64,000 bases of DNA, taken from assembly GCA_963774955.1 (NCBI GenBank), contig CAVZGV010000003.1, positions 771 to 64,770 on the forward strand. Direction: 5' to 3'. The translations under genes were made by a program, and so were the position numbers. The notes under the pieces were generated by a model. It did no database searches. It had not been told where the DNA came from and worked only from the letters and a program-made list of their open reading frames with translations. This document shows, one piece after another, positions 4,986 through 32,407 of the stretch (the stretch's first letter is position 1; every line of letters starts with the position of its first letter). The DNA comes from Candidatus Falkowbacteria bacterium. Lineage in GTDB: Bacteria > Patescibacteriota > Patescibacteriia > CAIXNZ01.

Positions 4986-5003
4986 AAAATTCAGATAATT
5001 CCC

Positions 5004-7974: not shown

Positions 7975-8421
7975 ATGCAGATGTCAATTTTACAGCAAAT
8001 AGATACTGATTTTCAGCAAGCCCGAAAAGATCAGAATCAAGACGCCTTATCCACCTTGCGTCTGATTCTGGCTGCTTTGAAATACGAACGAATTAAAAAA
8101 ATGGTTGATTTAACTGAAGATGATGTCATTAAAATATTAAAAACAGAGACAAAGAAACGAAAAGAATCAATAGTTGAATATGAAAAAGGCAACCGTCAGG
8201 ATCTGGTTGCCAAAGAACAAACTGAAATTAAAATAATTGATAAGTATTTGCCAGCTCAGTTAAGTGAGGATGAAATCAAAGTTAAAGTCAGGGCCATACT
8301 TAGTTCCCTGGAAGACAAAGATAATGCCGGTAAGGTTATGGGTAAAGTAATGGCAGAAATGAAGGGACAGGCCGATGGCACATTAGTTCGTAAAATAGTG
8401 GAAGAAGAATCAAACAAATAA
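7975..8421 (+). CDS. yqeY: GatB/YqeY domain protein.
   Basis: 148 aa, ...ILAALKYERIKK...KRKESIVEYEKGNRQDLVAKEQTEIKIIDKYLP...AGKVMGKVM..., the YqeY family pattern. Confidence 0.6.
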   Translation: MQMSILQQIDTDFQQARKDQNQDALSTLRLILAALKYERIKKMVDLTEDDVIKILKTETKKRKESIVEYEKGNRQDLVAKEQTEIKIIDKYLPAQLSEDEIKVKVRAILSSLEDKDNAGKVMGKVMAEMKGQADGTLVRKIVEEESNK

Positions 8422-8439
8422 AAAATTCAGATAATTCCC

Positions 8440-11052: not shown

Positions 11053-14000
11053 ATGAGGAGGTTCAATATAAAAAATTTGTTTCTTTTAGGCCTGATTTGT
11101 TTGGGTTTATTTGTGGTTGTTAATTTCGTTAGTGCTCAGGGTTCGACCATTGATCCTGGACTTAATTATGTCGGCCCTAATATTGGCATGGGTACTCAGG
11201 ATATTAGAATTACTATTGCCAATATCATCAGAATACTTTTAGGTATTTTGGGGCTGGTTGCGGTGATAATCATTATTTACGGCGGAGTTTTGTATATGAC
11301 AGCGGCCGGTGAGGTAGAAAAAATAAAAAAGTCCAAGCAATTGATAATCGGCGCGGTTATTGGCTTAATTATTGTTTTATCAGCTTTTACCATCGCCAGT
11401 TTTATAATCAGCAGTATTCAGAACGCAACCGGACCCGGAGGAGGGCCAGGAGAAGGGCCAGGGCCAGGACCAGGACCGGGACCAGGGCCAGGACCGTTAA
11501 CTGGTTTTTGTCAGGATCCGGATTTGACTTCAGATGCCCCTTATATTTGCAGCTTATCGCCGAAACAGGCGAAAAAAGGTGATTACGTTACTATATTGGG
11601 CGGTAAATTTTTAGATTATGATAATGCCAATAGTAAAGTAGTTTTTGTAAAAGAAGGTGATACAACAGAAACAGAATATCCGGCCACTATTGTTTTATGC
11701 GCCAGTAATCCATCCTGGAAAGACTATGAAATTATAATTGAAGTGCCTAATGATTTGCCCGCAGGACCCGGCTTTAATATTTATGTAAAAAATGCCAAGG
11801 GGACCAGTAAAGATAAGCTTGTCGGCGCTTTAGATCCAAGCCATAAATTTACTTTGCTTGACGGTCAGCCTGGCCCGGGTATTGCTTGTTTAGAGCCTGA
11901 TGCCGCCAATAAGAATTTATCAATAAAAGTTTACGGTAAGCGCTTTGGAGCAGAGCAGGGTACCAGTAAATTCACCTTTACTGAAAATGCCTTAGCCGAA
12001 ACAATCGTCGGCTGGAGTGATACTGAATTAACCAGCGTTAGTGTGCCGGCAACTGCAATTAGCGGCAATGTTTTTGTCACCGTCTCAGATCAAAATAGTA
12101 ATGGTGTGTTTTTTAGATACACCTGTAATGTCAGTGATGATTGCGTCTCCACCTGTTGTACTGAAACGTATTTCGGAAAAAGCTGCGCAGCTGCTAATTA
12201 TTGTCTGCCTGGTCCTGGGGAAAGCTGTAACGGAGATACTACAGGCGGAACTTGTCAGCCGACCGAATGTCGGCCAGACTCTGTCTGTGATACAACGACT
12301 TGTGATTGTCGCTATCCACAGTCAGGTGATCCTTGCGATGCAGACCTCAACACAGCAGCCTGTCAGCCTGACGCCGCTAAATGCGGTTCAGGTTTATACT
12401 GTGCGCAAGCGAGCTGTACTTGTGCGGAAATGCCGCAAATAACCAAAGTTGAACCCAATGACGGCGCTCCTGGTAATTTTGTGACTATTTGGGGCAAGGG
12501 TTTTGAAAATAATATGGTCAAACCTGAGGATATAGTTTTTAAATCTGATTTTGATTCCGAGGCCGGCAAAGTAGGCTGGAGCTTTGATACCGGAGTATCC
12601 GGGGAGGGTGAAATCCGTACGGATGGTAAGTCTTATTCAGGTTCATCTAATATTTATCTGCGCATGCCCCAGACTGCCGAGGCTAATGATCTCTTATCAG
12701 CTTATTTGGAAGTAGCTGAAGCTTTGAATCCGGATTTGCGGCTCAATGAGGAAGATGTTCTTGTTTTTCAGTTTAAGTACAAAGGAACAGTGTCTCAAGG
12801 TTCAAGTTTTAGCCTTGGTTATATAGATAATAACAATCAAATTCATACTTGGGCTTATATGTCAGTAGGGACTTTTGAAGATTGGGATACTTATAATTAC
12901 GTAATTTATTCTATCCCTATTAATGCGGAAAAAATATTTATAACATTAAGGAGTACAGGAACTCAAGCAGAAGATAGTGAAATGTATATTGATGATGTTC
13001 AGGCATTTAGATTGCCTGAATACGGCGAAGTTAGGTTTTGCGGCCAGGGTGGCTGTGGCAATTCTGATGATAGAATTGCCCGTATGCCTATATTTGTGGC
13101 ACCTTTTTGTTCAGCTGACGGAATTTGGACTGACAATCAGATAATTGTTGAGGTCCCCCTCGGCGCTGGCTCCGGTCCACTTCAGGTGACAACAGTTAGC
13201 GGACTCCAGGATGCAACCAATGATGAAAATGGTGAGCAACTTTCAGATTTTGAGATTAATACTATTAAGAGGCCGGCTATGTGCAGACTATTTCCTGCTC
13301 AAGGTGTCTATGAACAAAGAGTTGTAATCGGAGGTATAAATTTCGGGACAGCTCTAGGTGAAGTTTTAATCGGCGGTACAAGTTTTAATACTATGTTGAG
13401 ATCTACAGTCCCGCCTTCGCGTTGGCCTAATTATATTTGGTATGACCAGATTATTGCTCAGTTAGCGGTACCGTTATTAAGCGCAGGTACTTACCCTGTG
13501 CAAGTGAAAGTTGGTGATGAATTCAGTAATCCCATGAATTTTAAAGTTTTACCGAACGTAGGCGCCCCGCATATTGACGCGATTGACCCGGTTCAAGGTC
13601 AACCAGGTCAGTATATTACTATCTTGGGCAGTAATTTCGGTAATCAACCCGGTTCAGTTAAATTTAATAATAATGAGCCATTGAAGGATAACTGGACATC
13701 TGGTGATATTTCTTTTCCGGCTCAGTGTCAAAGCAATTATTGGCATGATACATATATCGTGGTAAAGGTTCCGTCCGGACTGTCTACCGGCTTGATTGAT
13801 GTCGTGGTTAAGGCCGGTGAAGTATTTTCCAATACCACAAAATTCACGATTTGTGCTGCCGGTTCAGGCACTTGTCCATTGACCCCGGGAATTTGTGCTA
13901 TAAATCCCAAACAGGGGCCGGTGGGTTTAAGCGGAGTTACTGTTTATGGTGAAAACTTTGGTGATTATTTAAATACTAAAAGTCAAATCGTTTTTAATGA

Positions 14001-17000
14001 AGTTCCTGTCAGCGATGTTATTGGCTACTGGACTAATACCATGATTGGTCTGGGTTCGAATTTAACAGCAGCAGCTAATCCGCCGATCGTTGTGCCGGAG
14101 ACTACCAGCGGTCCGGTGCAGGTAACTGATAAAAACGGTATCCTTAGTAATACTATTAAATTTGAAGTTTCTGACTGCCGTATTGATGCGACAGTTTGTG
14201 CTGAAGGAACTAAATGTTGCGGTACTGGATCTTGTCTGGCTGAATGTCCGGTGGCAACTGTTGCCTCTTGTTCATATAATTGGAGCTTTACCACGGGAAC
14301 CAGGACACCTTATTTCGGACCTCCTTATGTGGTTGAAGATTCCGGTTGTACCAATAATACCCAAAGTCCGTCGCCCTGGATTTCTTCGGAAAATAATTGT
14401 GTTGATGCTTTGATTTCCGCCAGATTCAGACAGCCTGCGCAAAACGGAGATGTAGATGCCAATATTTTAACCTCCACCTTAATCCCCGATAATATTAAGG
14501 TTGTACCCTGCGGTAGCGCCGATGTTTTTGATGATGCAAATTGTGAGACAGCGGGCATCGCTGGTCGCGATATTAATCCGATTGAAGTGGAAAACCCCCA
14601 TGTCTTAGTGACTGGCGGTCCTACGGTAACCAATAAATTTACTTTTTATCCCAAGTCTTCCTTACTGCCAAATACTTGGTACAAGGTGGTTTTAAAAAGT
14701 AATCCCAGCACTAACCTTGGTATTAAAACAAATAATGATGTCTATCTGGACGGTGATAAAGACAGCCTGGACGGGGGAGATTACAGCTGGTATTTCAAAA
14801 TCAGAAATTCGGCGGATGAATGTCCGATTGATAAAGTTTTGGTTTCCCCTCCAACTGCCAAGCTTACTTTAATTACTCAAACGCAGGAATATAGCTCGTA
14901 TCCTATTGCCATGAATTGCAATATTTTAAATCCGGCTAATTATACCTGGAATTGGTGGAAGAAATATAGTGATGGCCATGAAGAAAATGCCGCTGACACT
15001 GATGGCGGTTATGGCGTGGCCACGCTGGCGCCAAAAACTCCGCCGCCTCAATTTATTGGCAGCTATAGCTATAAACAGCTGGCCACACCCAAAAAACAAG
15101 GCTTGGTCTATGTGGCGGTTAATATTTTTCCGAGTGAGCCTGCTAAATATAAAGAAGATACCAATAATACGCTGGTGGTTGATTTTAATATTCCCAGTAT
15201 AATTGATTTTTATCCCAAAGACGGTATTAATCAGGCGGAAGTTAATTCTTATGTAACAATTGAAGGTATAAATTTTGGTCAAAGTCAGGGCGACAGTCAG
15301 GTTTTATTCGGCGAAGCGCAAGCTCAGCTGGCAGACTGTGTTGATTCTTGGACAGATAAAAAGATTAAAGTAATTGTGCCCAAGGCCGGGCCCATTCAAA
15401 GTTCAGGCTTAAAAACACTGGCGACGCCCGAGCCAGTCAGCTTTAATAATAATCTTATTTTAGGCTATAATTTTGATGAAAATGATGATGTCTTGGTCGC
15501 TGATATTACCGGCAATTATCAGGGTGAGATTGTTAACGGATCCAAAGTAGATTCACAATTTAATAAAGCTTTACAGTTTAACGGCACTGATACTTATGTT
15601 CGAATCGGAGGCAATATCCAAGCAGCTTCTGGCAGTATTGAATTTTGGTTTAAACCCGAAGCCAGCGGAGTTCTATTTTCAGCTATGGGGCAGGCAGGCA
15701 ATGATTTTACTATCAGTTATAATGCTGCTGCCACGTTGGGAGTTATTAAAAATAATCAATGGAATCATGTAGTCTATACCTGGGATCAGGCCAAAATCGA
15801 AGACAATTTGTATATAAACGGGATAAGGCTAAGCGGAATTAATAATCCGGGCCTTGATATTGCCGGCGCTTTTATCGGGGTGAATAAAATCAGTTATATG
15901 TTGGGAACCCAAGAATCCGGCGGGTTAAGAATCAATTATTTTAAAGGGCAACTTGATGATTTTGCCATTTATAATAAGGTTTTAAGTCAGCAGGAAGTTT
16001 GGACAAATTTCGGGCTGACACCGGGACAAATTGTTTTGTTAAATTTTGAAGGAACTGGGTCGGAAATTTTAGATTCATCACTTAATAATTTTGTCGGTAT
16101 GGCTGTTGACAACCAGAATGTAAGTTTCCGGACAGCTGAAGGCAAATATGGTCAGGCCATTACTTTTGATAATAATAATCGAATAAATATTATAAATAAT
16201 CCCTCTTTGTCTTTTGATAATCAGTTTACTATTGAGGGCTGGTTTAAAATTCCCACCTTAAATTCTAACACTATTTTCGAGGCGAATAATATTAAACTGG
16301 GGGTTAACTCCGGGAATCTTAGGCTGGAATTGAAGCTTGATGTCGGCAATCGCTATCTGAATTTAGGCTTAGTTACGACGGGGGCAGACAAAAATTTTGA
16401 TATTAATGCCTGGAATTATTTTGCCGGGGTCTATGACGGAGAAAAAATCAAACTTTATTTGAATAGTTCAGAAAAAGAATATGCTACGGTTGGCAAGATA
16501 TTTCAGGAAGCAGACTTTAATAAAGCATATATCGGGGGTATCGGTAGTTCTTTTCAAGGCTCCTTGGATAATTTAGCCCTATATAATCGGGCATTATCCT
16601 CGGCGGAAATTAATAGCCGTTTGGGCGCTAAAGATAAATCTTTTATTAAAGTGGTTACCAGTTTTGGCCAGGCTATAAGCGATTTTAATAATAATGGCAT
16701 CAAAGATCCGGGTGAAATTTATACTTATAGTAATAATATTTATCCTTTCTTGTGTGCCTTGCAGCCAAATTTCGGGACTGAAGGGACAACTATCAACGTC
16801 AGTGGTGATAATCTTGGTAATAATAATAAAACTATTTATCAGAACAAACAATACGGTATTGGCAGCTATATTAAGTTCAATTATCCGAGTTTGCCTGTTT
16901 TGGACAACAACAAAATAAAGACCTGGACTAATAAGGCTCTGAGTTATGTAAATCCATTTACCAACGTGGACAGTCCAGTTATCAAGGTTTTTGCCACCAT

Positions 17001-20000
17001 TGATCCTTATTCCGAACCTTATAATGATCAAGAAAATGACGGACAGTTTATCGATGGGATGGATACTGACTACGCCGATATTAAGCCAGAACCAAACGGC
17101 AATGGTGTTTATGATAAATATAATTATTCTGTTTACGGCGGAAACGGTGACCAGCCTGAATTAGCCAGTAATACCGTGGATTTTTTTCAGCCGCCAGTAA
17201 TTGTCAGCCTGTCTCCTGATAATGGTCCGGTTAATCAATGGGTTACAATTTACGGTTATAATTTCGGTATTTTTGACCCGGAGATAAGTAAAGTACAATT
17301 TTATAATAATATTACCGGGCGCGTCATCGGCTGTCCTGATCCTGTTTGGTTTGATGATCATATTATTGTGGAAGTTCCGGTAGAGGCTCAATCAGGAGCA
17401 GTCAAAGTAATTACTGCCCAGGGTTTGGTCAGTAATGAAAAACCCTTTAAGGTAAACAATAATCCGTTGGGCGCAGGATTATGCGCTTTTCAAGATTTAT
17501 TGGGTGAACCGAAATTTAACGGCCGACCGACTGACCCGATTAAAGCAATTGGGGTGCGCTTTGATGCTGTCCAGGGCCAAAATAATTTGATTTTCAATGA
17601 TAAGCAAAATGCTCCGATTGCTGACCCGGCGGATTGGGCGGATTCGGAAATTATTTCTACTGTGCCGGTCAGTGCTGAAAGCGGCTTGGTTTATGTTAAT
17701 AAAAAAGTGGAATCAGGCAGAAAGTGCGTGGGCTTTAGTATTGCCAGCTGGTGTCCGAGTAATAAGTACGATGTTTTATATACTGATGTGCCTAGTAATT
17801 CTCTGCCTCTGGAGATTCTCAATCTCTGCGAAAGCGGTTATTACGGGACCTTGGAAGCCCGAGAAAAAGCGTTCCCAATAGAAACTTTTACCCGCGCAGA
17901 TGATAATGCCCCCAAAATAGAATTTTCCGATCTTAATATGGGCGTTTTAGCTTCTGACGGCACTTATTTGTATGCGATGTATCAGAGTGTTAATCTTTGG
18001 GGATATTCATTCTTTGGTAATCCTAATGAGGATAATGTCATGACAATCTGGAAAATCGGGTCAGGTTATAATGGCACGGAATTGGGCCGAGTTTATAAAA
18101 AATATCAGGCCACCCGAAAGCTTCTTTATCCTGATGCCGGAACATATGTTGCGGAACTTTCAGCGCCAACGGGGACCAGTTCATTAATTTATACCCCGAC
18201 CGGACTTTATGTCGGTTATGAAAATCATTTTAAGACTAGGAGCTGGCTGCCGACGACTCATCCTGATTATAAAAAGAACTGGTGGGGTATTGCCAAAATA
18301 AAATTTAATGAAGCCAGCAGTACATATGACTGGGAGATGCAAGAAATTCCTCAGGGTTTGGTTCTGGATTATTATCCTACCTGGCCAATTGTGACTAATG
18401 CAAGTTCTTCCTCTGCTAGTAATCGTTTGATGTTATATTATACCGGTAGCAATATTTTAGTTATTAGTAGAGATAATAATTTACCGGGTTTTGTCATTCA
18501 GGTTTTAAACAATGATTGGCTACAACTAGGTTTAACGTCTGTTAAAAATGCCGAGGCTAATTTTTATTCTTATAATGCTATTGTAAATACGTATTGGAAT
18601 TACACTGCAACTTATCCACAAGGTGTTGCTGATGAGCAGTATTTTTATAATATTTATAGTAACAGGGTAAATATTATTGACTGGCGTACAGGAGAGTGGG
18701 TAGGCAGGTTTGGTAATTACGCCGCGTGGACAGTTGAACAGAATGGCGTTTATGACTGGAAAAATCAAAAATACTGGTTTGGCACCAATAGAAATGATAC
18801 CCCAATTACTTGGACCTCCAATCCAGCTTATTATTCGCAAATAGTGCCGTTTACCTATGATGCTAACGGCAATCTGTCTAGCAACCATAATCGTATTTAT
18901 CGCTATGAAAAATGTCAGACTCCGATAGTCGGTTTTTGCCGTTCTGATCTTGATTGCCAGCAAGGCGGCATGTGTACGAACAGTAGATGTGAAAACGGGC
19001 AATGTACTCCGGAAATTAAGTCTTTTTCGCCGCTAGAAGGAGCAGTCGGTACTTGGATGACAATCAGCGGCTGTCATTTCGGTTGTCAGCCGGGGCAAGT
19101 ATATTTCAGCGGCGGAACATCACTTGACCAAGTATCAACTGATGGTTTATTGGCGGGCTACACCTTTGATTCAACGGAAAATAACGGATTATTCAGGAGT
19201 TCTTTTACCAACCCAGACATCAGCAGTCAACTGGTTGGTAGCGCTACCATCAGCAATGGGGTCTTGAATGTTACCGGTGATGGCTACTTGGATTTAGATA
19301 ACAGACTGGCTCAGGCTCAATATTTTGGCGGTACTGAGACCGGGAAAATGACCTTGCTGATGAAAGTAAAAACCGCTAGTTTCTCGGCCGGTAATATAAT
19401 TAATTTATCCAGGTATATCAAAGGTACGAATTATTTTGCCCTGCAGCCAAGTACCGGAGATCAGACTCAGCTTCGTATTTATGTTAAGACCAAAACTGTC
19501 GATCGGTCGATCTATTCTGCGGGGAAGATCTTGCGTAATGAATGGAATAATATCGCTTTTGTTATGGAAGCAGGAATCGGCTATAAAATTTATATTAACG
19601 GAAAGCTGACGGATGATGTTCCAGCGGCTGACCTTATATTATACAGCTGGAATGGTGATACTGCACTTGGTATAGGGTATTCTAAATTTATTGGCCAGAT
19701 TGATGATTTCTTTGTTTATAACCAGGCTTTATCCGCTGAGGAAATATTAAAATTTTCCTTAGGTGCCAAAGGACTGGAGCTGGCTGATCCGGTTTGCTGG
19801 CCAAATTGGAATTGTTCTTCTACCGGAGGTTATGATGAAGTGACCGTGGAAGTGCCTAATCGTCGGACACCTACCAATTTAGCTGATGATGCGCTAACCG
19901 GGCCAGTTCAAGTGGTCACTGCGGCTGGGTTAGTGGATAGCAGCAATGATTTGCCGCTTGCTCCGACTCCGACGCCGCCGACGCCGCCGACAGCGCCAAG

Positions 20001-23200: not shown

Positions 23201-24487
23201 GTTGATTGGCTTGATGTCGAGGTATACCGCAAAGCACCGATTGACAACATAAAACAGGCAGAACTCCGCAATAATGATTTATTTATCTGCGCCGGGAAAA
23301 ATAATTGTCAGTTAGCCGCTGACTATGATCAAGATGCGGTTAAGGCAGGTAATCAGCATATGTATAAGGCTTTAGCCAAATATAACGGCAGTCAGGAATT
23401 GCAGGCTACTTTCCAATGGTCAAAAACTGATACTTCTGATCCGCAAGAAGCAATTAATATTTCCAATGATTATGGCTCCTGCACAGCAGGTGATACCAAT
23501 ATTGAATTTTGTACTAATGATGCTGATTGCGGTTCCGGCGGAATTTGTGATCTGACGCAGGGTGATCTGCTCACTGAAGATCAGTATAAAGTAAAAAATT
23601 ATTCCGGGGTGACTTTTGCCACGGCTGCGGCCCTTAAAGAAGGCGTGTCAAGGTTAGTTATTGAAGCTCAAGCTTTGGGCAGCACTGTTTCGGCGCAAAA
23701 AGAATTTACAGTTTACATTTTACTGTGCGAAAATCCTTGGCCGGGCATAGATGAAAAGTTCCCGATATCTTCCATTATTAATGCTTATAATTTCCAGACT
23801 TATTATTGCCGCGATGCCACCACTCCGGGCGGACCGCTTTTACCGGCAGCACGCTGGCTGGCGCCCAAAGAAGGAAAATTAAATATTTTACAAAATGTTG
23901 ATTTTGAATTCGGTAATTTGACTTACTGGGCCGATTTGACCGGCAATGCTTTTAATTCCCAGCCGGTTTTCCGTGATTTGCCAAAAGAGAGGGGACTGGC
24001 AGCTGCCGGGATTCAGGGTGCCTGGTGGATAAATACCTATGAAAGATATCGCGGTCAGTCTTGGGAAAATATAAATGTTGTTCAGGGTAATACACCGTTG
24101 GGAATATTACAGTCTGCCGCTTTTGTCATTGAAGGTGCTAAATTGGAATTTAAGATTGGCGGCACAGCTTCTTCTCCTGCTTGGCCTATAAATTTACCTG
24201 TGGTTAATTTTAATGACACGACTGATACTAACCGTGCGGCTATACAAGGCGTAACCGCTGCCGTGTTGTTTGTTCGAGATGATAATAGTTCTTCTTTTTA
24301 CAGTATTGCCTCAGAGTCTGGCAACAATTCCCAGGTGATGACGACGAAAAATTGGGTCATTGATGGCGCACATAGGGGAAAAACTGGTATAATATATATA
24401 TATGACAATAGTACAGGTGGTTATATAAGTTTTGACGACTTAAGACAGTATGATGACAACAACGTAGAAATACCAATTAGGTTTTAG
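20177..24487 (+). CDS. Giant Cys-rich surface protein C (1436 aa ORF). It is almost certainly the C-terminal continuation of protein B across a frameshift near 20255. It contains IPT-like, Myxococcus-type Cys repeats and a fourth LamG domain (~21538-22170).
   Basis: The ORF overlaps the end of B by 110 nt in the +1 frame. An IPT-like domain is split across the two ORFs (RIYGENFGSAPATGDHITFEP... in B; ...TDWGSCPETGWDDKNICFSVPDNAAGFGTG...VSVTKGDQQSGTKQFEV in C). The module pair IPT(C.FGC..G.VYF) + LamG is repeated at ~19010 and ~21400. The annotated N-terminus is not signal-like. Confidence 0.7.
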   Translation: MVLINCRIGKNLIIMPSQILIRAVMIAIGTEGNHSYDIGEPFIDFANPGNYDSNLAGANFISQIIKFVTKTDWGSCPETGWDDKNICFSVPDNAAGFGTGSETALNNVSVTKGDQQSGTKQFEVTFGSCGNQKIERDKGEMCDGTLMPTITPTELINICTQLFSPLYPDDEISQCYAECNIGCSLSFCVGSDCKIIKELCGNDTIDEFYSVNKETFYHEQCDNNTFPSGLTCSQAGYASDKVCVSGDKAGEPCYGDDQCSDNKTCAGGDNQGAACTTNTDCPQSTCQSDIACVQSCTFRCDTCQLLVCDKNGDNCELSLKLTCGNDQLDINEECDGTNLNGKTCTDFNNQEGTLACYPPQDPIGINDCRLNTDDCEGGTLPGPVCTADSDCQACGVGTSSCVKGFCTPYITKFSPTDGQIGTWTTLEGCYFGCEQGEVYFEGDKLTELPAENKNGLVAGYLFNNDGNVNDISGNFPGTLNGGASVQNGYLSLGGADSDYVSLGLLNAGSLYDVNGNSSETFITRINWTQNQDLKIQPIGTALGLMHIIAVIGQSGHIGVYLASQNQDGGWIYSANRINPGEWVEIALVISSGSNLKFYINGILDKEVSISGLKLWGPAWETTLGQRYPGDPDAYRNFSGQIDHLLIYNSALSEDEIANIYKLTHKQGLNPGEACPANWMCHKSCSDKYCVGGTNDNKPCANNAACPGGDCQSNTRACTTNDSCKVCLGGTNAGGLCTTNQDCPASQCGTGTCRPDWIGDLVTMEVPNENTEVTTDDAITGPINLVTRYNLQNDTQHLPYLTAPYTPQTSDFMISSNEYPQICLAADQIKVESTNPADNDGITNDNLICRNAKININFDKIVDQKKITKGNFLISTCESGIVTPKTAFNEGLINRAIAFVFDIVQKLISIKKDVSAQAGCTTIADYNLEVSNSGATKVSIVPKGLLAPEQVYAVTILGGLTGITGIDGAILDYSESPKKINVNGTDLEAYIFEFKTMGTTADPKSGICNVDWLDVEVYRKAPIDNIKQAELRNNDLFICAGKNNCQLAADYDQDAVKAGNQHMYKALAKYNGSQELQATFQWSKTDTSDPQEAINISNDYGSCTAGDTNIEFCTNDADCGSGGICDLTQGDLLTEDQYKVKNYSGVTFATAAALKEGVSRLVIEAQALGSTVSAQKEFTVYILLCENPWPGIDEKFPISSIINAYNFQTYYCRDATTPGGPLLPAARWLAPKEGKLNILQNVDFEFGNLTYWADLTGNAFNSQPVFRDLPKERGLAAAGIQGAWWINTYERYRGQSWENINVVQGNTPLGILQSAAFVIEGAKLEFKIGGTASSPAWPINLPVVNFNDTTDTNRAAIQGVTAAVLFVRDDNSSSFYSIASESGNNSQVMTTKNWVIDGAHRGKTGIIYIYDNSTGGYISFDDLRQYDDNNVEIPIRF

Positions 24488-24497
24488 ATAAAAAAGT

Positions 24498-27400
24498 ATG
24501 AAAAAACTAAAAATAAAATTTTTGCTGGCTGCTTTAGCGTTGCTTTTATTGCCGGTGGCCGGTATTGCTCAGGATGCTAATTTAGCGCCTTCAAGCCAGG
24601 ATACTTTGCTGGAACAATATTTGTTTCCTGTTAGTTCGTATTTGGAAAGCGGTACGTCCATAGGCAAAGCCGCCTCTGAATGCGACAGTTATGCGACATA
24701 TGATGAAACCAATAATGTCTGGGCGGCTAGTACAGCTTGTTCGGCTTTAACAAGTGATTCCGGCATAGTACAAAAAACAGGGGATGGCAAAGGAATCTAC
24801 GGCTCGAGTTTAATGGCGTTAACTTATAAATTTAGCGTTCCTCTGGAAGGCAATTATGATTTTAAAATCAAGGCAGCCAATTCCTTTGATAATTTTGCGA
24901 ACCTAAATAGTCAGCAGTTGGATTATATTTTCCAAAATTCTGATACTACAAATTATGATTCTTATCAGATTGATCCTGCGACAAAAAGTTTAACAGTTTT
25001 AGAATATAGCGATGATAATGTAATAACGGATAACGTTAAATATGAGATGTTTAAAAGTATAATTTTCAGTGTTTATCTGGATATGCCCGCTGTTTTTAGC
25101 GGTGAGGATAAAGAAGAAAATTATCGTCAGGGGTATATCATAATTTCAGCGACTGATTTTTCTCAGTTGCAGGACGGTTCGGTCTTATTGGGCAATTTAA
25201 AGCCCGGAGAACATACCGTCAACCTGCGTTTTTTAAGTGATTATTATTTTAATCCTTCGGCTAATCCATTATCTGGTAATCTGAATACTTTTGATGAAGT
25301 TAATATTGAGGCCGGTCAGTGCGCAGTCGGCCCCAACGAAGCTGCTAAAAACTGTACAAGTAATAAGGATTGCCCTTCAAAGGTTTGTAATAAAATAAAC
25401 AATGTTTTAGATATTAATCCGGTGATTGCCGGTGTTTCCATAAATCAAACTCAGCCGACTACTGATGTAATCGGTGTTAGAATCTATACCAATAAAGATC
25501 ATAAGGATCCGGAAACTTGGTATCGGGAAAATGTGATTCAGCCTATGGCTAGCGTCAAACCAATAAAGGTTGACGGTTATTTGGGTGTTCAGGATGAACG
25601 CACCACTTATGTCAGTGCGGCCAATATTGACCGTAACAATTTTTTCACCAATATTTATGTCATGGCTTATAACCAGGATGCGGCGCCCCCCTCAATTAAT
25701 ATTTTCAAGCAGCTGATCGCCAATTGGGTTTTTAATAAAAATATTTACACAACATATACTTTAAAAACAGAGGCTGAAAAACAAAAAGATAAATTGCGCC
25801 GTGATACCATCAGATTAGCTGATATGTTTAAATTGGGCCGTCTTTTGGGAAATTATAAATCTAATAATGGCGGAAAATGTCCGGTTTTAGATGCGGGAAC
25901 CTATATAAAAAATCATTCCATCTCCACCTGGCCTTCATGGCAGGCGACTTTAGGAAATGAATTGGGTACGGTTTTGCCCATAGATCCATTAAATATAATG
26001 TCAGCCACTAAAGAAAGTCAGTATGACTGTACAAATGCCATTGATAAAGAAAATTGCCAAAATATTTGTACCCGAGATGCTGCCAATAATCCATTGACAG
26101 GCTGTCCTCTGACCCAGCAGTGTATGTCTGATTATTGTAGCAGTTGTTCTGCCAGCTATGATCCGCTGACCTGCTGGGATAAAGCAAATTTGAAATTTTA
26201 CGATGAAACTTTTTTTTCAGGCTGTAAAATGCCTAACAGCGAGGCGTATAGTGTATTTGACGGCGCTTTGCGAGTCGGCGCTTCTGACTGTAAAGAAGGT
26301 TTATTTGCAGAAACCGGCCAAGCCTATGTACTTGACGGAGATTTTGTTTACCAATACGTTTCTCGTGATAACGGACAAAGCTGTTCCTTTATCAATCGTT
26401 TTGAATATACGGAGCCAGATCTATGCCAGCCGGGTTTTTGTTATTACGATAATAATGATACCAACCCCACTAATGACTGTTATCAGCCGGGTGCTTGTTT
26501 AGCCGGTTGCGACAGTCAGGCTGCAAATTGCCTTAATACCCAATACAAAAATTTATATTGTTATTCAGGCAGCTGGCGGCAATCTTGCGGCGACGGATTT
26601 TGGCAGACTCAATGCGGAGAAAGTTGTGACCCGAATTCGCCTTTGACACCAGGAGATTCCTGGTGCGACCGGCTTTTTGGACCTCAGGATTGGTATAACG
26701 AATCAAGTATCAAGGCTTCCTGTACCTCAGCCTGCACTATCAGCGAAGGCAATAATTTGACTATTGCAGATTGCGGCGGTTTTTGCGGGGATAAAGTAGT
26801 TGAAGCAAAAGGCGGAGAACAATGTGATGAAGGTTTGGTTCCGACAGAGATGAAAAAGGGCAGTGCCGGCTTTGATCAGAATTCTCAATATATGTGTTCA
26901 GGCAAGGGCGGCAGTTCTGTTCCGGTGTTAAATGGAGCCGATTGCCTGAATTACAGTAATGATTGGGATTTGCCTACTACAAGAGAGGCTGATCCTTATT
27001 TTGATCTTTTATTTTGCTCTTCTTTATCAACAAGAAGCTATTGGATAAATAAATTAGCGGATAATTCTATAAAGTCTAACGGTGGTTTTAGGGTAAGTTA
27101 TAATTTTTCATTGCCCCAATATGGCGGTTATAATCTGACGATAAAAGCAGCTAATTATCAAGATGATTTGACTAAATTGACGACGACGCAGCTTGATTAT
27201 TTAATCAGCCAGAAACAGCCGGTTGATGATTTATACAATATTACAGGCGTTTGTCGTAATTCTGATGTTATTACCTGTGCTAGTGATGTCGATTGTCAAA
27301 TAAATAATCAGCCGACTGGTTATTGCCAGCAGGGTGCGGTCAATATTCCGGAATACGGCTTGATTGAGCCGACAGATAACAGAAAATATGATTTACTGCG

Positions 27401-29891
27401 AAGTTTAATCTTTAGTGTGTATCTTGATATTGATAGCGACTCCGAGTTAAGTATACCAGGTAATTTGGTTGGCTTTATAATTATGCCCGCCAGCAATGTT
27501 GAACAACCAGGAAGTTTATTTATCAGCGGATTAGCAGCCGGGCCTCATACTGTATATTTACATTTTGTCGGTGATCATTTTTATTATCAGTTACCTAATG
27601 ATCCTCCGGGTAGCGCAGTCGATAACCCCTTGGCAGAAGTAGCTGCCGGTTTACCTGATCCGTTGGCTCTGGATATAAATCCCATAATTTATTCAATTTC
27701 CATGTATTCGCCGCAGGCAGCAGTCGGTGACTGTATGACTTATGGCGGCTGGTGCGGTGATGGCCAGGTGGAGCTACAGTTTGGGGAACAATGTGATGTT
27801 AAAAATTATTTGCCGCCGAGTGCTGAACAAACAGTAAATATTGCCTATAATCCGGGATTTGAAGGCTATTTTACACCTTGGCAAAAATCCGGCGGAACAG
27901 TAAGTCTGAATACTGATCAGTATTTCGAAGGCAGATCCGGCCTGAAAATGGTGGCTGATTCGGCTGATATAGCCATGAATTTGCAACAATTAATTAATTT
28001 TTCTCCGAATAAAAATTATACCATTTCTGTGCGGGTCAAAGGTGCTGTTGATTCAATCAAATTTCAAGTCGGTAATTTGTCCCAACTTGTGGGTTGGCTG
28101 GGCAGCCCGATTGATTTGCCGGAAAAAACCGCAGAGGAAAAAGCTGGTTGGAAGCTTTATCAGCTTGATGAATTTTTGACTCCGGCTCTGAGTACCGGTT
28201 TGAGTGATGAATTTAGATTAATTTTTACGCCGAATTCAGGAGCTACATTAAATATAAACGTTGATGATATAAAAATAGTTGCCGAAGCCAGTGCCAGACC
28301 GCAGTATCAGTGTGGTACGGTTAGCGGGTCATTGTGTCAGTATCGCGGGGGCTATTGCGGTGACGGGCAAATTCAGACTACTTATGGAGAAAATTGCGAT
28401 GATCGAGTAGGTTTGAGTTGTGCTAATGGTGAAGGTTGTGGTAAAAATGGAAACTGCAATTCTACTACTAATATTTGTGAAAGTATTGCCTGCAATAATA
28501 TATGTAAAAGCACTTATTGCGGGGACGGTACTGTTCAGCGGCCAAATTCTGTGAGCACCTATGAAACTTGCGATTATAAATCCGATCCTATGTGCTCATC
28601 AGACTGTACTCATATTAAAATGGGAGGTGTTTGTACGACTGATACTTATGGGCAGACCTGTCAAACTAAAGACAGCGCTGATTGCCGGGTTTGCGCCAAC
28701 AGTTTATCTTGTTCCATCAGGAATTTCGGCGATACTGATAAAAAATGTTTGGGCGCCAGAAACAGTTATGGCTGTAAAAGCGATAGTGATTGCATTTTAG
28801 GCTATTATTGCGATACGGCGCAAAATAAGTGTAAAGAAGAAGTTTCTACTTATTTAAGATATCATCCGGAAGCAGAAACCAGTCTGACTTTACCTGTTCC
28901 TCCGGCGCCGACTGGTATTTCTTATGACATTAATATCAGCAAATGCCCGGATTTGAAGACGGTTACTTTGGGGAATGAAACCTATGTTGTTGATCGTTGC
29001 AGCAATATAAGCTGGCTGTCAGCTGATAATATTACGAGAATTGACGTTAATTGGAACAATAATGATGCCGTGACTATCGGCTGTCCAGCGCCAACGCGCT
29101 TGCCGACCGTGGCTGAACTATACAGCCTGGTCAGGCAGACAAATTCCGGATTACTATATGCGGACAAGAATTTATTGAAATTATGTCCGGCCAGTTGCAG
29201 TTATTCCGAAAATGCGGATAATCTCTGTTCCACCGACTGCCGTATTCCCAATGATGACAATTATATTTATTGGACCAGTACTTGCGTGGACAAAGACGGT
29301 ACCGGGTGTAAAAAGGCCTTGGCTGTAAATTTTAAATACGGCAGTATTGAAAGTTATCCGGCAGCTTCGGCTTTAAAGGTCCATTGCTTAAAAGAAACAA
29401 ACTGCGGTGATGGTCTGCTTGATCCCGGTGAATCATGTGAATTTTTTACCTCAGCATCCGACAGTAATATTAAAATTGAAAAGAATATTGAGCGGGAATA
29501 TAGTAAGAGCTGTAAAAATTTCGGTTATGACGGCGGTTTTTTGCATTGCGATCGGGAAACTTGCGGTATCAGAGTAGATAATTGTTATTTGAATAGCCGG
29601 CCGGCTCAATCCTGCGAACAAGTCTGTCAGGATAAAAAAACCTTAGCCTGTCAGTCAGTTGGCCTGGATATCAGTACGGATGCTTTTGATCAGGCGGGCC
29701 TGGCTTCATGGATTGCCTCGAATAATAGAATGGTTGATGTTGATGCGAATGGCAATTGTTTGCCGAATCAGTCTATTGCTAGCGGTTGTAATTATACCTT
29801 TAATAATAGGGAAAAAAGCTGTATTGATACTTATACCAATAAGCCCGCGCCGTTTAATTCCGAATATTCTTATTGCAATTGTCAGGAGTAA
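24498..29891 (+). CDS. Giant secreted Cys-rich protein D (1797 aa). It has a signal peptide, two copies of a ~200-aa beta domain, a CBM4/9-like domain, CGDG...CD Cys repeats and a C-terminal DUF1566 (Lcl-like) domain.
   Basis: Signal peptide MKKLKIKFLLAALALLLLPVAGIAQDA. Internal duplicate modules near 24800-25300 and 27090-27640 (LDYIFQNSD.../LDYLISQKQ..., SIIFSVYLDM.../SLIFSVYLDI...). CBM-like NPGFEGYFTPWQKSGG...NYTISVRVKG at ~27840-28310. DUF1566-like RLPTVAELYSLV...YWTST at ~28990-29410. Confidence 0.75.
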   Translation: MKKLKIKFLLAALALLLLPVAGIAQDANLAPSSQDTLLEQYLFPVSSYLESGTSIGKAASECDSYATYDETNNVWAASTACSALTSDSGIVQKTGDGKGIYGSSLMALTYKFSVPLEGNYDFKIKAANSFDNFANLNSQQLDYIFQNSDTTNYDSYQIDPATKSLTVLEYSDDNVITDNVKYEMFKSIIFSVYLDMPAVFSGEDKEENYRQGYIIISATDFSQLQDGSVLLGNLKPGEHTVNLRFLSDYYFNPSANPLSGNLNTFDEVNIEAGQCAVGPNEAAKNCTSNKDCPSKVCNKINNVLDINPVIAGVSINQTQPTTDVIGVRIYTNKDHKDPETWYRENVIQPMASVKPIKVDGYLGVQDERTTYVSAANIDRNNFFTNIYVMAYNQDAAPPSINIFKQLIANWVFNKNIYTTYTLKTEAEKQKDKLRRDTIRLADMFKLGRLLGNYKSNNGGKCPVLDAGTYIKNHSISTWPSWQATLGNELGTVLPIDPLNIMSATKESQYDCTNAIDKENCQNICTRDAANNPLTGCPLTQQCMSDYCSSCSASYDPLTCWDKANLKFYDETFFSGCKMPNSEAYSVFDGALRVGASDCKEGLFAETGQAYVLDGDFVYQYVSRDNGQSCSFINRFEYTEPDLCQPGFCYYDNNDTNPTNDCYQPGACLAGCDSQAANCLNTQYKNLYCYSGSWRQSCGDGFWQTQCGESCDPNSPLTPGDSWCDRLFGPQDWYNESSIKASCTSACTISEGNNLTIADCGGFCGDKVVEAKGGEQCDEGLVPTEMKKGSAGFDQNSQYMCSGKGGSSVPVLNGADCLNYSNDWDLPTTREADPYFDLLFCSSLSTRSYWINKLADNSIKSNGGFRVSYNFSLPQYGGYNLTIKAANYQDDLTKLTTTQLDYLISQKQPVDDLYNITGVCRNSDVITCASDVDCQINNQPTGYCQQGAVNIPEYGLIEPTDNRKYDLLRSLIFSVYLDIDSDSELSIPGNLVGFIIMPASNVEQPGSLFISGLAAGPHTVYLHFVGDHFYYQLPNDPPGSAVDNPLAEVAAGLPDPLALDINPIIYSISMYSPQAAVGDCMTYGGWCGDGQVELQFGEQCDVKNYLPPSAEQTVNIAYNPGFEGYFTPWQKSGGTVSLNTDQYFEGRSGLKMVADSADIAMNLQQLINFSPNKNYTISVRVKGAVDSIKFQVGNLSQLVGWLGSPIDLPEKTAEEKAGWKLYQLDEFLTPALSTGLSDEFRLIFTPNSGATLNINVDDIKIVAEASARPQYQCGTVSGSLCQYRGGYCGDGQIQTTYGENCDDRVGLSCANGEGCGKNGNCNSTTNICESIACNNICKSTYCGDGTVQRPNSVSTYETCDYKSDPMCSSDCTHIKMGGVCTTDTYGQTCQTKDSADCRVCANSLSCSIRNFGDTDKKCLGARNSYGCKSDSDCILGYYCDTAQNKCKEEVSTYLRYHPEAETSLTLPVPPAPTGISYDINISKCPDLKTVTLGNETYVVDRCSNISWLSADNITRIDVNWNNNDAVTIGCPAPTRLPTVAELYSLVRQTNSGLLYADKNLLKLCPASCSYSENADNLCSTDCRIPNDDNYIYWTSTCVDKDGTGCKKALAVNFKYGSIESYPAASALKVHCLKETNCGDGLLDPGESCEFFTSASDSNIKIEKNIEREYSKSCKNFGYDGGFLHCDRETCGIRVDNCYLNSRPAQSCEQVCQDKKTLACQSVGLDISTDAFDQAGLASWIASNNRMVDVDANGNCLPNQSIASGCNYTFNNREKSCIDTYTNKPAPFNSEYSYCNCQE

Positions 29892-29929
29892 CTTCAAACT
29901 TAAGTTTATTATGTTTATAATAACAAAAT

Positions 29930-32407
29930 ATGGTTAATGCGAATTGGTTTAAAATTTTTATAATTTGCCTGGTTATAATTTGCCTGGGTTTTTTGAGCTG
30001 GCAGATCGTTGCCATGGTGGAAACAGCAAATTCAGTCAAGGATTATCTGAAAGTTGCGGCGACCTGCCCTAATTTTTCAGCTTTTGCTTCTGATAATGTT
30101 GATCACAATTATCTAACTATGAAAGACAGTTGTACCGGTTTGGTCTGGATGAGCCGTCCTTTGCCGATTTATAAGACAGCTGGAATTGAGGTTCAGCCAG
30201 GGTATGTTTGGCAAAATGCGAAAAATACCTGCGCGGGAATAGCCCAGGTTGATGGTACTTCTTTATTTCGTTTGCCGACAGTTGAGGAATTACTCAGTTT
30301 GGTTAAAGTTAGCTGTGATAATGCCAGTTGTACGGTTAATTCTGATTTTTTTCCAGCGGATATTGATAAGACATTTGCTAACGGCTATTATTGGTCTGCC
30401 AATGATTTCAATGAAGATGCCAGCTGGGCAACAGATAATGCCGGACGTGATTATAAACGTTCAGTTAATTTGCTGACCGGCCAGGTTGATTCCCCGGTTT
30501 TTGGTAAAGATGTCCAGTTGAATGCCTGGTGCGTGGTAGCACGCCAGCCGGAAATTATTGAACGTAAATTTACCAGCGTTACCAATCAAGTTATAAGTAA
30601 CGGCAGTCAGGCTCTTGGTGGCAGTTTGCGCACTGTATATAACAGAAAATGCGCCGTAGCTACTGTAGATGATGATTGCAGTGCTTTGAGTGCCTTAGCA
30701 GGCACAGTTGCGTGTGAGAACAATGTTGCTGGTGACGGGAATTTTTATTGTGTTAAAACAGCAAATATAAATCTTACAGACATAATAGTCGCAAGTTGCG
30801 ACCCAAATTACCATGTAGCAGCTGATGTATGTCAGCTAAATCCGCCATCTGATAATTGCGGAAATAGTTATATAGATCTTACGCCCTTACCGGCAGAGCT
30901 TTGCGATGACGGTGCTACTTTAAATGGTAAACCCGGACAATGCAATGGTACCTGTAGTGGCTGCGGATTGGGTTATCGGATTGATTCGGCCAAATGCGTA
31001 TCTAATTGTGGTAATGGGACTGTTGATCTTAAACCGGATAATTCCTTAGAAATCTGTGATAATGGTGCTTTAAATGGACAAACAGGTAAATGTAATTCTA
31101 CCTGTACTGGTTGCGATGCTGGTTATTATAATGTTAATAATGTGTGTACACCAAATTGCGGTAATGGCGATATCGATCTTACGCCCTTACCGGCAGAGCT
31201 TTGTGATGACGGCCCTGATAATGGTCAGCCTGATAAATGCAATAGTACTTGTAATGGTTGTGGAACAGGTTTTTATTTAAATTCTACAACTAATGAATGT
31301 AATTATAATTGTGGTAATGGTACATTTGAAGACCCAGAACTTTGTGATGACGGCGTTGATAACGGTCAACCCGGTAAATGTAATACAGCCTGTACCGGCT
31401 GCGCAACAGGTTATCACCTGGAAGGTAAGTATTGTATCGCTGATGTCATTGTTTATCAGTGTGTTGGCACTTTAGCCAATGCCACAATTTGTCCGGAGCC
31501 AAATGCTACAGGGTTGATAGCAGATACAAACATTGAGTTAGTAACTGCTTGCGCTGACGCTGTTGAAAAATGTGAATATACCTGTAATCCCGACTATATT
31601 GCGTTTAATAATACTTGTATTGAGCTTAAGTGCGGTGATGGCGTGGTTACACCAGGATCACCGGAAATTTGTGATGACGGTGATCCATTAACCGGTGGTA
31701 AAAACGGAGTTTTTGGTTATTGTAATAGCACTTGTACTGGTATTCAGGGCTTTGGTAGCCCATTCTTTTATGATAATTTTGAACTGCCTTTAACTGGTTG
31801 GATGCAAGGTTATTGTCCAACCGGTAGTGTTAATTGTTCCTGGTCCAGAGTAATTCATCCTCTTGGTTCCACAAATTATTCATTAGAGTCAATTGGAGGT
31901 AGTGATAGCTCTCTTTATCCTAGAGATTATTGGGTTGATCGGGCAGGTTTAAATGAAAAAGTTGATGTTGATGTATTAGTTATGATTGATTTTCCGCCAG
32001 CAGTTGGCTTAAAGGATGCAATGTTAATTGCACGACGATCAGGGTCCGGTACAACTGAAAATTATTATGGTTTATTGACTAATAATGGTTCTGCATCAGA
32101 CGATCCCAATATTCTGGTACGTTATAAAAATGGGAGTCAATCAATTTTGGTAACAGGACCAGATGTAAATATTACCGGCAGAAATTGGCTGCGTTTACAG
32201 GTATATAATGATTCTGCAACAGGCAATGTTGTCATCAGATCAAAATGGTGGCCAGAAGGGCAGTTAATGCCTACTGCTTGGGAAATGACATACACAGATA
32301 CTGATACTACTAATAATATTACTACTGGTGGCAATGTTGGTTTGGCCGGCTGGAAAACAAATACCCTTTACTTCGACAATTTTCAGGCTTATGATTATGT
32401 GCCTTAA
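29930..32407 (+). CDS. Membrane-anchored Cys-rich protein E (825 aa). It has an N-terminal TM anchor, a DUF1566 (Lcl-like) domain, four tandem Myxococcus-type cysteine-rich repeats and a C-terminal ConA-like jelly-roll domain.
   Basis: TM at WFKIFIICLVIICLGFLSWQIVAMV. DUF1566 pattern TGLVWMSRP...WQNAKNTCAGIAQVDGTSLFRLPTVEELLSLV (~30100-30545). Four ~47-aa repeats NCGNG..D....E.CDDG..NGQPGKCN.TC.GC..GY at 30840-31440. C-terminus FYDNFE...FDNFQAYDY. Confidence 0.7.
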   Translation: MVNANWFKIFIICLVIICLGFLSWQIVAMVETANSVKDYLKVAATCPNFSAFASDNVDHNYLTMKDSCTGLVWMSRPLPIYKTAGIEVQPGYVWQNAKNTCAGIAQVDGTSLFRLPTVEELLSLVKVSCDNASCTVNSDFFPADIDKTFANGYYWSANDFNEDASWATDNAGRDYKRSVNLLTGQVDSPVFGKDVQLNAWCVVARQPEIIERKFTSVTNQVISNGSQALGGSLRTVYNRKCAVATVDDDCSALSALAGTVACENNVAGDGNFYCVKTANINLTDIIVASCDPNYHVAADVCQLNPPSDNCGNSYIDLTPLPAELCDDGATLNGKPGQCNGTCSGCGLGYRIDSAKCVSNCGNGTVDLKPDNSLEICDNGALNGQTGKCNSTCTGCDAGYYNVNNVCTPNCGNGDIDLTPLPAELCDDGPDNGQPDKCNSTCNGCGTGFYLNSTTNECNYNCGNGTFEDPELCDDGVDNGQPGKCNTACTGCATGYHLEGKYCIADVIVYQCVGTLANATICPEPNATGLIADTNIELVTACADAVEKCEYTCNPDYIAFNNTCIELKCGDGVVTPGSPEICDDGDPLTGGKNGVFGYCNSTCTGIQGFGSPFFYDNFELPLTGWMQGYCPTGSVNCSWSRVIHPLGSTNYSLESIGGSDSSLYPRDYWVDRAGLNEKVDVDVLVMIDFPPAVGLKDAMLIARRSGSGTTENYYGLLTNNGSASDDPNILVRYKNGSQSILVTGPDVNITGRNWLRLQVYNDSATGNVVIRSKWWPEGQLMPTAWEMTYTDTDTTNNITTGGNVGLAGWKTNTLYFDNFQAYDYVP
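30840..31440 (+). repeat. Four tandem ~141-nt coding repeats (Myxococcus-type cysteine-rich repeat units) inside E, with near-identical 38-mers.
   Basis: gatcttacgcccttaccggcagagctttgcgatgacgg (30881) against gatcttacgcccttaccggcagagctttgtgatgacgg (31176); the protein repeat is CGNG..DLTPLPAELCDDG. Confidence 0.75.

Follow-up and report, generated by a model that had tools for sequence, protein, structure and literature searches.

Organization of the locus

We analysed a stretch of DNA of 64,000 nucleotides (nt), hereafter the window, from the ultra-small, symbiotic Candidatus Falkowbacteria bacterium (assembly GCA_963774955.1, contig CAVZGV010000003.1, positions 771–64,770). Positions 5004–34445 of the window are a lineage-expanded copy of a surface-protein locus that is conserved in bacteria belonging to the candidate phyla radiation (CPR) of the Parcubacteria type. 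Its products are a small protein, A, with a duplicate, Z, a giant protein, BC, the exported cysteine-rich proteins D and E and the membrane proteins F and G; A, Z and BC each begin with a pilin-like module. An earlier note on positions 11053–32407 had described separate giant proteins rich in lectin domains and carbohydrate-binding modules (CBMs). All of the large open reading frames (ORFs) from 4.2 kb to 64 kb of the window lie on the + strand, and the genes of the locus are as follows (lengths in amino acids, aa).

5004–7514, + strand: Z, with T4SS_pilin (40 bits) and Big_5 (60 bits) domains
7739–7969: rpsU-like gene
7975–8421: yqeY
8440–11028, + strand: A, small pilin-anchored surface protein, 862 aa
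11053–20253, + strand: the part of ORF B that belongs to BC, its N-terminal 3,067 aa (whole ORF 11053–20286, 3,077 aa)
20254–20260, + strand: frame break of 7 nt between B and C
20261–24487, + strand: the part of ORF C that belongs to BC, its C-terminal 1,408 aa (whole ORF 20177–24487, 1,436 aa)
24498–29891, + strand: D, secreted Cys-rich protein, 1,797 aa
29930–32407, + strand: E, Cys-rich protein, 825 aa
32448–33248, + strand: F, single-pass membrane protein, 266 aa
33354–34445, + strand: G, single-pass membrane protein, 363 aa

The spacing along A, B, C, D, E, F, G and the following gene ybeY is 9–105 nt, and because these gaps are short, co-transcription of A to G with ybeY is plausible. 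Rfam and tRNA scans of the window gave zero matches. The proteins were scanned against Pfam both whole and, for B, C, D, most of E and a further giant protein I (see below), as tiles. The families that matter here, with their cut-offs, were Laminin_G_3 (LamG; PF13385, 27.6 bits), CBM_4_9 (PF02018, 25.9 bits), Lcl_C or DUF1566 (PF07603, 34.9 bits) and T4SS_pilin (PF18895, 26.6 bits), together with TrbC-VirB2 (PF04956). This annotation, which the earlier note had proposed as a check, did return lectin, CBM and DUF1566 assignments.

B and C as one interrupted gene

ORF C, which overlaps B by 110 nt in a different frame, lacks a signal peptide. In two related genomes, L033 and L034, a single ORF lies 5' of the D orthologue (2,394 aa, ended by the contig edge, and 4,067 aa respectively). 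A blastx analysis of nt 19900–20600 showed that the matching frame changes from +1 to +2 between 20253 and 20261, collinear with the single ORF of L033 and L034, and in a DNA alignment the junction had 7 nt here compared with 15 nt (L033) and 21 nt (L034) of an in-frame variable linker. On these alignments, B and C are one gene, BC, with a predicted product of about 4,477 aa, interrupted by an 8-nt length difference at 20254–20260.

Several essential housekeeping genes of this assembly, lepB, hisS (2825–4878), ftsA and ftsZ (35309–37763) and a der/engA-like gene (about 297–768), are each split into three to five ORF fragments. The ftsA–ftsZ region has 16 gap openings (17 gap positions) relative to L033, and the giant ORFs of 5–10 kb are clean. 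For the same population, a second, independently made short-read assembly (ERR12035938) contains intact ftsA (413 aa) and ftsZ (388 aa) genes, showing that the fragmented genes reflect patchy assembly or polishing errors and not pseudogenes; in that assembly D is identical, and E, F, G, ybeY and dgkA are equal in length. An exact search of the assembly index matched D but neither A nor NrdD. We favour an assembly artefact as the cause of the B/C break also, although 8 nt is atypical compared with the usual single-base error, and a real truncating mutation has to be kept in mind. Programmed frameshifting was considered and rejected: there is no slippery homopolymer, the 8-nt difference falls in a linker of variable length, and indel errors occur elsewhere in the assembly, so that an artefact or a simple mutation is the likelier cause. 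The B/C split and the broken housekeeping genes should not be taken as biology.

A VirB2-like module at the N-termini of Z, A and BC

In Z, A and B, the N-terminal region is made up of a signal peptide and a VirB2-like two-helix domain matching T4SS_pilin (33–40 bits), accompanied by weaker TrbC/VirB2 matches. A short basic KAKK loop (...TSQGNPEVIQKAKK...) connects the two long hydrophobic helices, after which comes a Gly-rich or Pro/Gly-rich linker. The module makes up only the first ~130 residues of proteins that range from 836 to about 4,477 aa, and is about 51% identical between A and B. In the VirB2 topology, everything after the second helix lies outside the cell.

Z and A are 91% identical over 575 aa. 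Their genes share a gap-free direct repeat of 1,652 nt (4932–6583 compared with 8368–10019, 95.8% identical) that flanks rpsU–yqeY, and both copies begin 72 nt 5' of the start codons. The C-terminus of Z differs from that of A and lacks the LamG domain of the latter. Relatives have a single copy of the small pilin gene, positioned after yqeY, and the repeat in the window reflects a recent duplication, or gene conversion, of this gene.

A phmmer search with the 150-residue pilin module against 1.84 billion cluster representatives retrieved 35,492 proteins at E≤1e-3. In the best 150 of these 35,492, the length was above 500 aa in 92, above 1,000 aa in 41 and above 2,000 aa in 18, and these mostly had one N-terminal match. 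When 33 long proteins were scanned, T4SS_pilin was found in all 33, Big_5 in 32, TIG in 13 and LamG in five, and pilin-fused large surface proteins are thus a common architecture. Public databases also hold polyproteins of tandem VirB2-like domains, with 17 such stretches in one protein of 1,775 aa (P0012), 11 in each of two others (P0020 and P0123) and further examples in P0002–P0005 and P0016, a seemingly odd architecture for a pilin. In the literature that could be searched, pilin–adhesin fusions in CPR bacteria are undescribed, the reports covering small VirB2-like pilins and pilin arrays only.

One explanation of this module is that Z, A and BC are adhesins incorporated into a pilus of the conjugative type, in which the VirB2-like domains would polymerise via the patescibacterial type IV secretion system (T4SS), with A and BC as minor or tip subunits bearing the lectins. 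Patescibacteria have divergent VirB2-like pilin arrays and may build T4SS pili (PMC12102498, PMC12857230). The domain is a bona fide T4SS_pilin/TrbC match, tandem multi-pilin polyproteins are on record, and the small and giant pilin-fused pair resembles a pairing of different pilin subunits. However, genes for the T4SS components VirB4, VirB6 and VirB3 were absent from the 64-kb window and from the large ORFs that were checked in the relatives, up to ~10 kb away. The tight helical packing of VirB2 filaments leaves no space for an appendage of 4,300 aa on each subunit, a rare or terminal subunit being possible at best, and we know of no experimental precedent for VirB2 fusions in pili. We regard a pilus of this kind as unlikely, and prefer a membrane-anchored adhesion apparatus.

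Lectin, carbohydrate-binding and stalk domains

The domains downstream of the pilin module, and those of D and E, are listed below with Pfam assignments where available (all on the + strand).

8647–8841: T4SS_pilin of A, followed by a Gly-rich linker
about 8932–10200: three Big_5 domains of A
10195–10635: LamG of A (aa 586–732, 78 bits)
11212–11406: T4SS_pilin of B, after the signal peptide and before a Pro/Gly linker
11914–12120, 13567–13851, 15193–15390 and 17194–17448, among others: TIG domains of B
15589–15999, 16174–16614 and 19333–19746: LamG1, LamG2 and LamG3 of B (156 bits in total, 56–128 bits on tiles)
21713–22147: LamG of C (58–62 bits)
about 22655–22807: Big_5 of C
about 23730–23820: conserved 'CENPWP...YYCRD' module of C
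23864–24484: candidate beta-sandwich at the C-terminus of C, 207 aa
24765–25433: first copy of a duplicated module of D
25395–26177: conserved core of D (D-core)
27045–27743: second copy of the duplicated module of D
27837–28277: CBM_4_9 of D
29097–29387: Lcl_C-like domain of D
30116–30493: Lcl_C/DUF1566 of E
about 30953–31375: DUF4215 Cys-rich repeats of E

Pfam thus recovered all five LamG domains that had been claimed, one in A, three in B and one in C, with E-values of 1e-15 to 1e-37 that exclude chance matches. The domains are real, but each begins 135–195 nt downstream of the position previously given (~10060, 15450, 16036, 19140 and 21538), and the first of them, in A, sits outside the range 11053–32407 that the earlier note had set itself. 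In a Protein Data Bank (PDB) sequence search, LamG3 of B aligned over 145 residues to the CBM40 sialidase lectin 2v73 (E 3.8e-4), and the sialidase N-terminal domain PF02973 was a secondary match for several LamG modules.

For the CBM4/9-like domains, the result differed from protein to protein. The domain expected in D near 27840 was confirmed by a Pfam match starting at nt 27837 (aa 1114–1193, 32.1–33.6 bits). Nine of the 17 full-length D homologues match CBM_4_9, and a profile of the 17 weakly matches solved CBMs (4d0q, E 0.004; 1gui, a laminarinase CBM4). In I, a Cys-rich giant of 3,233 aa encoded on the + strand at 50525–60226, and thus outside 11053–32407, three copies had been proposed. 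Two are supported, less clearly than the one in D (55841–56155 and 57170–57454; 37.9 bits on the whole protein, 23.0 and 27.3 bits when scored singly on tiles), but the third is a DSSFE...W motif near aa 1060 without Pfam detection. For the copy proposed in C at ~23880, the motif NVDFEFGNLTYW is present at nt 23891, but membership of the family is unsupported. The domain that contains it gave zero Pfam matches at E≤0.1, hhalign against the CBM of D matched 25 columns with a probability of 0.6%, a profile search of the PDB yielded spurious EF-hand loops only, and phmmer detected no mutual similarity among the CBM-like segments of D, I and C. Homologues of this domain are very few (one and two proteins in the searches), and an AlphaFold2 (AF2) model from four sequences (pLDDT 54) was too poor for classification; the top Foldseek matches of that model were mostly jelly-roll CBMs, none at E≤1e-3. 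A beta-sandwich is plausible. Three CBM_4_9 domains (one in D and two in I) are therefore supported, instead of the 'at least 4' first counted. The end of C (24383–24430, aa about 1403–1418) carries a conserved stretch, IYIYDNxxGGYISFDDLRQY, which looks like a Ca-binding loop of the EF-hand or dockerin type; its matches to the calmodulin family were weak and seemed spurious.

Of the two DUF1566 domains proposed, that in E (~30100) is clear (Lcl_C, aa 63–188, 53.5–55.9 bits). The match in D (~29000; aa 1534–1630) reached 24.2 bits, below the cut-off, but 15 of the 17 full-length homologues match Lcl_C at E≤0.01, and the RLPT..EL...YW motif is kept across the D family. The stalk of IPT/immunoglobulin-like (Ig) repeats was also borne out, both TIG and Big_5 scoring above the Pfam cut-offs (TIG 105.5 bits in B, with multiple copies on tiles; Big_5 60–70 bits in Z and A, and 24.7 bits on a tile of C). 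The Cys content is 1.6% in A, 2.0% in B, 3.6% in I, 4.7% in C, 5.1% in D and 6.1% in E.

D, its conserved core, and E

D begins with a cleavable-looking signal peptide (aa 1–24). Its family numbers 17 or more full-length proteins (38–80% identity), and dozens of Cys residues are invariant in them. In NCBI some of the homologues are named 'carbohydrate binding domain-containing protein' or, in one case, 'DUF1566 domain-containing protein', and individual members carry an extra Lectin_C, H_lectin, CBM_6 or Sushi domain. A module of ~220 aa is duplicated within D (aa 90–312 compared with 850–1082, hhalign E 1e-58); apart from a weak OstA_2 match, Pfam assigns nothing to it, and a relation to the CBM_4_9 of D was not detected.

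The D-core (aa 300–560) is strongly conserved, with the motifs VDGYxAL, AAN, YTNIY, FNTN, KLRRDxxRL, YP, GTY, WPSWQ, LPVDPLN and TCW. Closer relatives encode D, signal peptide included, as a gene of its own. In 13 distant relatives the D-core is found inside the giant pilin protein; it also occurs N-terminally in other secreted proteins and, in one case, with a LamG-like insert. The AF2 model of the core (pLDDT 73, pTM 0.64) had no PDB match by Foldseek at E≤1e-3, and a PDB sequence-profile search gave noise, with no solved relative. We also considered a GspG/pseudopilin-like head on account of the RDxxR...YP...WPSW motif, and rejected it, as the profile search gave noise and no pilin was among the top Foldseek matches.

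E has an N-terminal hydrophobic anchor or signal, the Lcl_C domain and DUF4215 repeats described above, and a C-terminal part of ~300 aa without domain assignment. Its orthologues in L033 and L034 combine Lcl_C with DUF2341.

These modules invite a second explanation, in which the CBM and LamG domains would target enzymes to a polymer, for example the host wall or glycans of the environment, as in cellulosomes or the giant proteins of predators, so that the locus would encode machinery for harvesting polysaccharides or attacking cell walls. CBM_4_9 and LamG domains usually accompany glycoside hydrolases, a preprint reportedly ties giant genes to cell-wall degradation in predatory bacteria (10.1101/2023.11.21.568195), and the first of the NCBI names of the D homologues would fit. 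Against this, whole-protein scans, tiles and PDB sequence searches gave no catalytic domain, only binding and Ig modules, and the D-core model matches no solved enzyme fold. Such machinery is very improbable here, and binding, in the form of an adhesion apparatus, is the function that we pursue below.

Conservation of the locus across CPR genomes

To survey the locus, A was searched against one genome per GTDB species, and synteny was followed by tblastn and ORF maps. This gave 32 related loci, all from CPR lineages (Parcubacteria, Falkow-, Buchanan-, Uhr- and Nomurabacteria and 'Patescibacteria group'), in keeping with the earlier description of an organism without a classical periplasm, which we can now name as a monoderm CPR bacterium. 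The closest relative was a metagenome-assembled genome (MAG) of Ca. Parcubacteria from Lac Pavin (73% identity to A and 67% to B). Ten locus-bearing MAGs are titled 'uncultured Gammaproteobacteria bacterium' or, in one case, 'Candidatus Nanoarchaeia archaeon' (L002, L006, L008, L010, L012, L017, L026, L029, L031 and L032); these are probably mislabelled or chimeric bins.

The recurrent gene order, which is also that of the window, is lepB–hisS–rpsU–yqeY–[A-like, 520–1,100 aa]–[giant, 1,700 to >3,500 aa]–F–G–...–ftsA–ftsZ. In about 30 of the 32 loci a giant ORF comes immediately after an A-like one, and rpsU and yqeY lie 5' of the pair in 26 and 24 respectively. Many distant relatives have a giant protein with homology to B, D and the C-terminal part of C, showing that B–C–D(–E) of the window corresponds to one polypeptide elsewhere and not to a set of independent giants. 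The locus is apparently inherited vertically in Parcubacteria-type CPR bacteria.

The domains were not conserved to the same degree. In 18 of the giants, T4SS_pilin was detected in 17, Big_5 in 17 and TIG in 16, as against LamG in two and CBM_4_9 and Lcl_C in none. The L034 orthologue of BC (54% identity, otherwise collinear) is without the ~210-aa segment of LamG3 (B aa about 2690–2902); by this alignment, related genomes differ cleanly in whether the lectin module is present. Together with the D-family counts, these results indicate that the scaffold (pilin module, Big_5, TIG and D-core) is conserved and the lectin modules are exchangeable.

F and G belong to the conserved part. F has one transmembrane (TM) segment and TSP3_bac repeats of the Ca-binding type (33018–33233, 60.7 bits), and is kept 3' of the giant gene in 13 related loci. 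G is a distant relative of F and is kept in ten; it has a weak TSP3_bac match, an Asn-rich spacer and, at aa 170–352, a C-terminal domain that is conserved.

Such conservation could mean that the locus supplies a structural spacer or a general coat of the envelope, similar to an S-layer, on which envelope integrity or division would depend throughout the Parcubacteria; the lectin folds would then bind the cell's own wall polymers instead of a host. Its position between hisS/rpsU/yqeY and ybeY/dgkA/ftsA/ftsZ is strictly conserved across divergent CPR classes. The scaffold, including the D-core, is conserved, and so are the Ca-binding TSP3 proteins F and G. However, the outer modules turn over quickly among close relatives, and Z and A arose by a recent duplication with an altered C-terminus, both of which are more typical of molecules facing a variable partner; in addition, no SLH-type, LysM-type or peptidoglycan-binding domain was detected. 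We consider a coat of this kind quite unlikely, and take a variable partner, the host cell in the adhesion reading, to be a better match for the exchange of modules.

Further along the window, G is followed by ybeY, dgkA, ftsA, ftsZ, nrdR, nrdD, nrdG, htrA and a peptide-chain release factor gene, beyond which lie sugar-nucleotide and glycosyltransferase genes, ksgA and then a second group of surface proteins (49713–63872). In this group, a TSP3-repeat protein (49713–50495) precedes I, which has an N-terminal TM segment and, as its sole Pfam matches, the two CBM_4_9 stretches. I is followed by J (60342–63872), a polytopic protein of 1,176 aa without a Pfam match. Its N-terminus is Cys-rich, and it has a block of predicted TM helices (aa about 218–468) and a hydrophilic tail of ~700 aa. 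The combination of a TSP3 protein with the giant I echoes that of F and G beside BC and D.

A possible adhesion apparatus for host-surface glycans

Taken together, the domain architecture, export signals, synteny, continuity of B with C and contrast between scaffold and lectins led us to the reading, held with moderate confidence, that the locus encodes a membrane-anchored, disulfide-rich adhesion apparatus for host-surface glycans. The small protein A, with its duplicate Z, and the giant BC would be exported by their Sec signal peptides, and the VirB2-like hairpin may anchor A and BC in the cytoplasmic membrane or act as an assembly module, its topology placing the whole C-terminal part outside the cell. 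The Gly/Pro linker and the Big_5/TIG stalk would then carry the five LamG/ConA-like modules away from the membrane. D and E, exported separately, would supply one CBM_4_9, two C-type-lectin-like Lcl_C/DUF1566 domains, the DUF4215 repeats and the D-core, with F and G as single-pass TSP3-repeat membrane proteins of the apparatus. The conserved Cys residues probably form extracellular disulfides, which is feasible because CPR bacteria are enriched in an MdbA-like oxidoreductase and VKOR that are able to form them (PMC6744442). The apparatus may bind glycans or other surface polymers of the host cell during episymbiosis, and turnover of the lectin modules may tune host specificity.

A host-surface-binding apparatus was also what the earlier note had in mind. 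The lectin, CBM and Ig-stalk architecture on which that view was built is real, but the pilin anchor and the conserved locus had been overlooked. It is still the most economical reading because the proteins carry export signals, catalytic domains were not found and lectin modules are swapped between relatives. It fits the proposal of host-surface binding for Parcubacteria generally (PMC4508563). VirB2-like pilins are widespread in Patescibacteria, and one cultured species cannot grow epibiotically without its T4SS (PMC12102498, PMC12857230). T4SS-pilin proteins and Ig-fold proteins are highly expressed in Paceibacterales co-cultures (PMC10936435), and giant membrane proteins of the CPR bacterium Vampirococcus are proposed to mediate host recognition and attachment (PMC8080830).

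Several points weigh against an adhesion apparatus. About half of D (including aa 560–850 and 1270–1500), aa 1–500 of C and most of I are without an assignable domain, and lectin-type folds can also bind proteins or be purely structural. A link to a T4SS machine is unsupported here, with no T4SS gene in the window or among the large ORFs checked around the locus in the relatives. The housekeeping and cell-division neighbourhood, and the very different habitats of the relatives, fit a general envelope component equally well. Finally, if the 8-nt difference in BC is real, the C part, with one LamG and the C-terminal module, would not be made in this strain.

Comparison with known systems

The described VirB2-like pilins of Patescibacteria share with Z, A and B the phylum, the N-terminal module and the occurrence of adjacent divergent copies (PMC12102498, PMC12857230). 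Those pilins are small and many are encoded near virB4, whereas here the module is fused to large proteins amid housekeeping genes, with no T4SS gene nearby. Vampirococcus lugosii is likewise a CPR bacterium, a predator, with several membrane-associated proteins of 1,400–4,200 aa composed of interaction and adhesion domains (PMC8080830). Compared by description, its giants contain WD40, PKD, integrin and fibronectin domains, and those of the window a pilin anchor, Big_5/TIG, LamG, CBM_4_9 and Lcl_C; neither a conserved locus nor a pilin anchor was described for it in that paper (PMC8080830).

The Lcl adhesin of Legionella pneumophila, from which Lcl_C/DUF1566 takes its name, has this domain in common with E and, as a match below the cut-off, perhaps with D. 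Unlike in Lcl, no collagen-like repeats were seen here, the domain is N-terminal in E and internal in D instead of C-terminal, and the organism is a monoderm. In giant modular adhesins, for example the RTX adhesins MpIBP, LapA and SiiE, an Ig-like stalk projects sugar- or protein-binding modules and includes Ca-binding elements, the same logic as here. These adhesins are substrates of the type I secretion system held in the outer membrane, whereas the proteins of the window have Sec-dependent export and a putative VirB2-like hairpin anchor in a monoderm cytoplasmic membrane; sequence relationship is confined to generic Ig and lectin folds. LamG3 of B is weakly similar to the sialic-acid-binding CBM40 of clostridial sialidases (2v73), but there is no sialidase catalytic domain here.

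The domains themselves are already known, as are the public names of the D homologues, and giant adhesin-like proteins are expected in CPR bacteria. Relative to the literature that could be searched, what is new is the VirB2-like fusion as a common anchor, the fixed locus of a small and a giant protein, and the contrast between a conserved scaffold and lectin cassettes.

Implications for host recognition in Patescibacteria

A bolder proposal, which we put forward tentatively and regard as possible but doubtful, is that the VirB2-type pilin fold has been co-opted as a universal N-terminal anchor or assembly module of the small and giant surface pair at the fixed hisS/rpsU–ftsA/ftsZ position in Parcubacteria-type CPR bacteria. 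The giant proteins would form long surface fibres, and the exchangeable lectin cassettes on them would determine the range of hosts. Such pilin-fused adhesins would be a class not described before, and the essential patescibacterial T4SS might assemble them.

How CPR/Patescibacteria, which may form a large share of bacterial diversity, recognise and attach to their hosts is largely unknown, and earlier work has dealt mainly with type IV pili and with the small VirB2-like pilins of Saccharibacteria. The locus described here gives an easily recognised syntenic gene pair across Parcubacteria classes, combining a VirB2-like domain with very large ectodomains. Its rapidly exchanged lectin modules are candidate determinants of host specificity, and LamG, CBM_4_9, Lcl_C and the D-core are defined modules suited to expression and binding tests. 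If the pilin domain is merely an anchor, the result would still be a useful annotation of an abundant, mostly 'hypothetical' class of proteins; if it proves to be an assembly module, the view of the essential patescibacterial T4SS would change.

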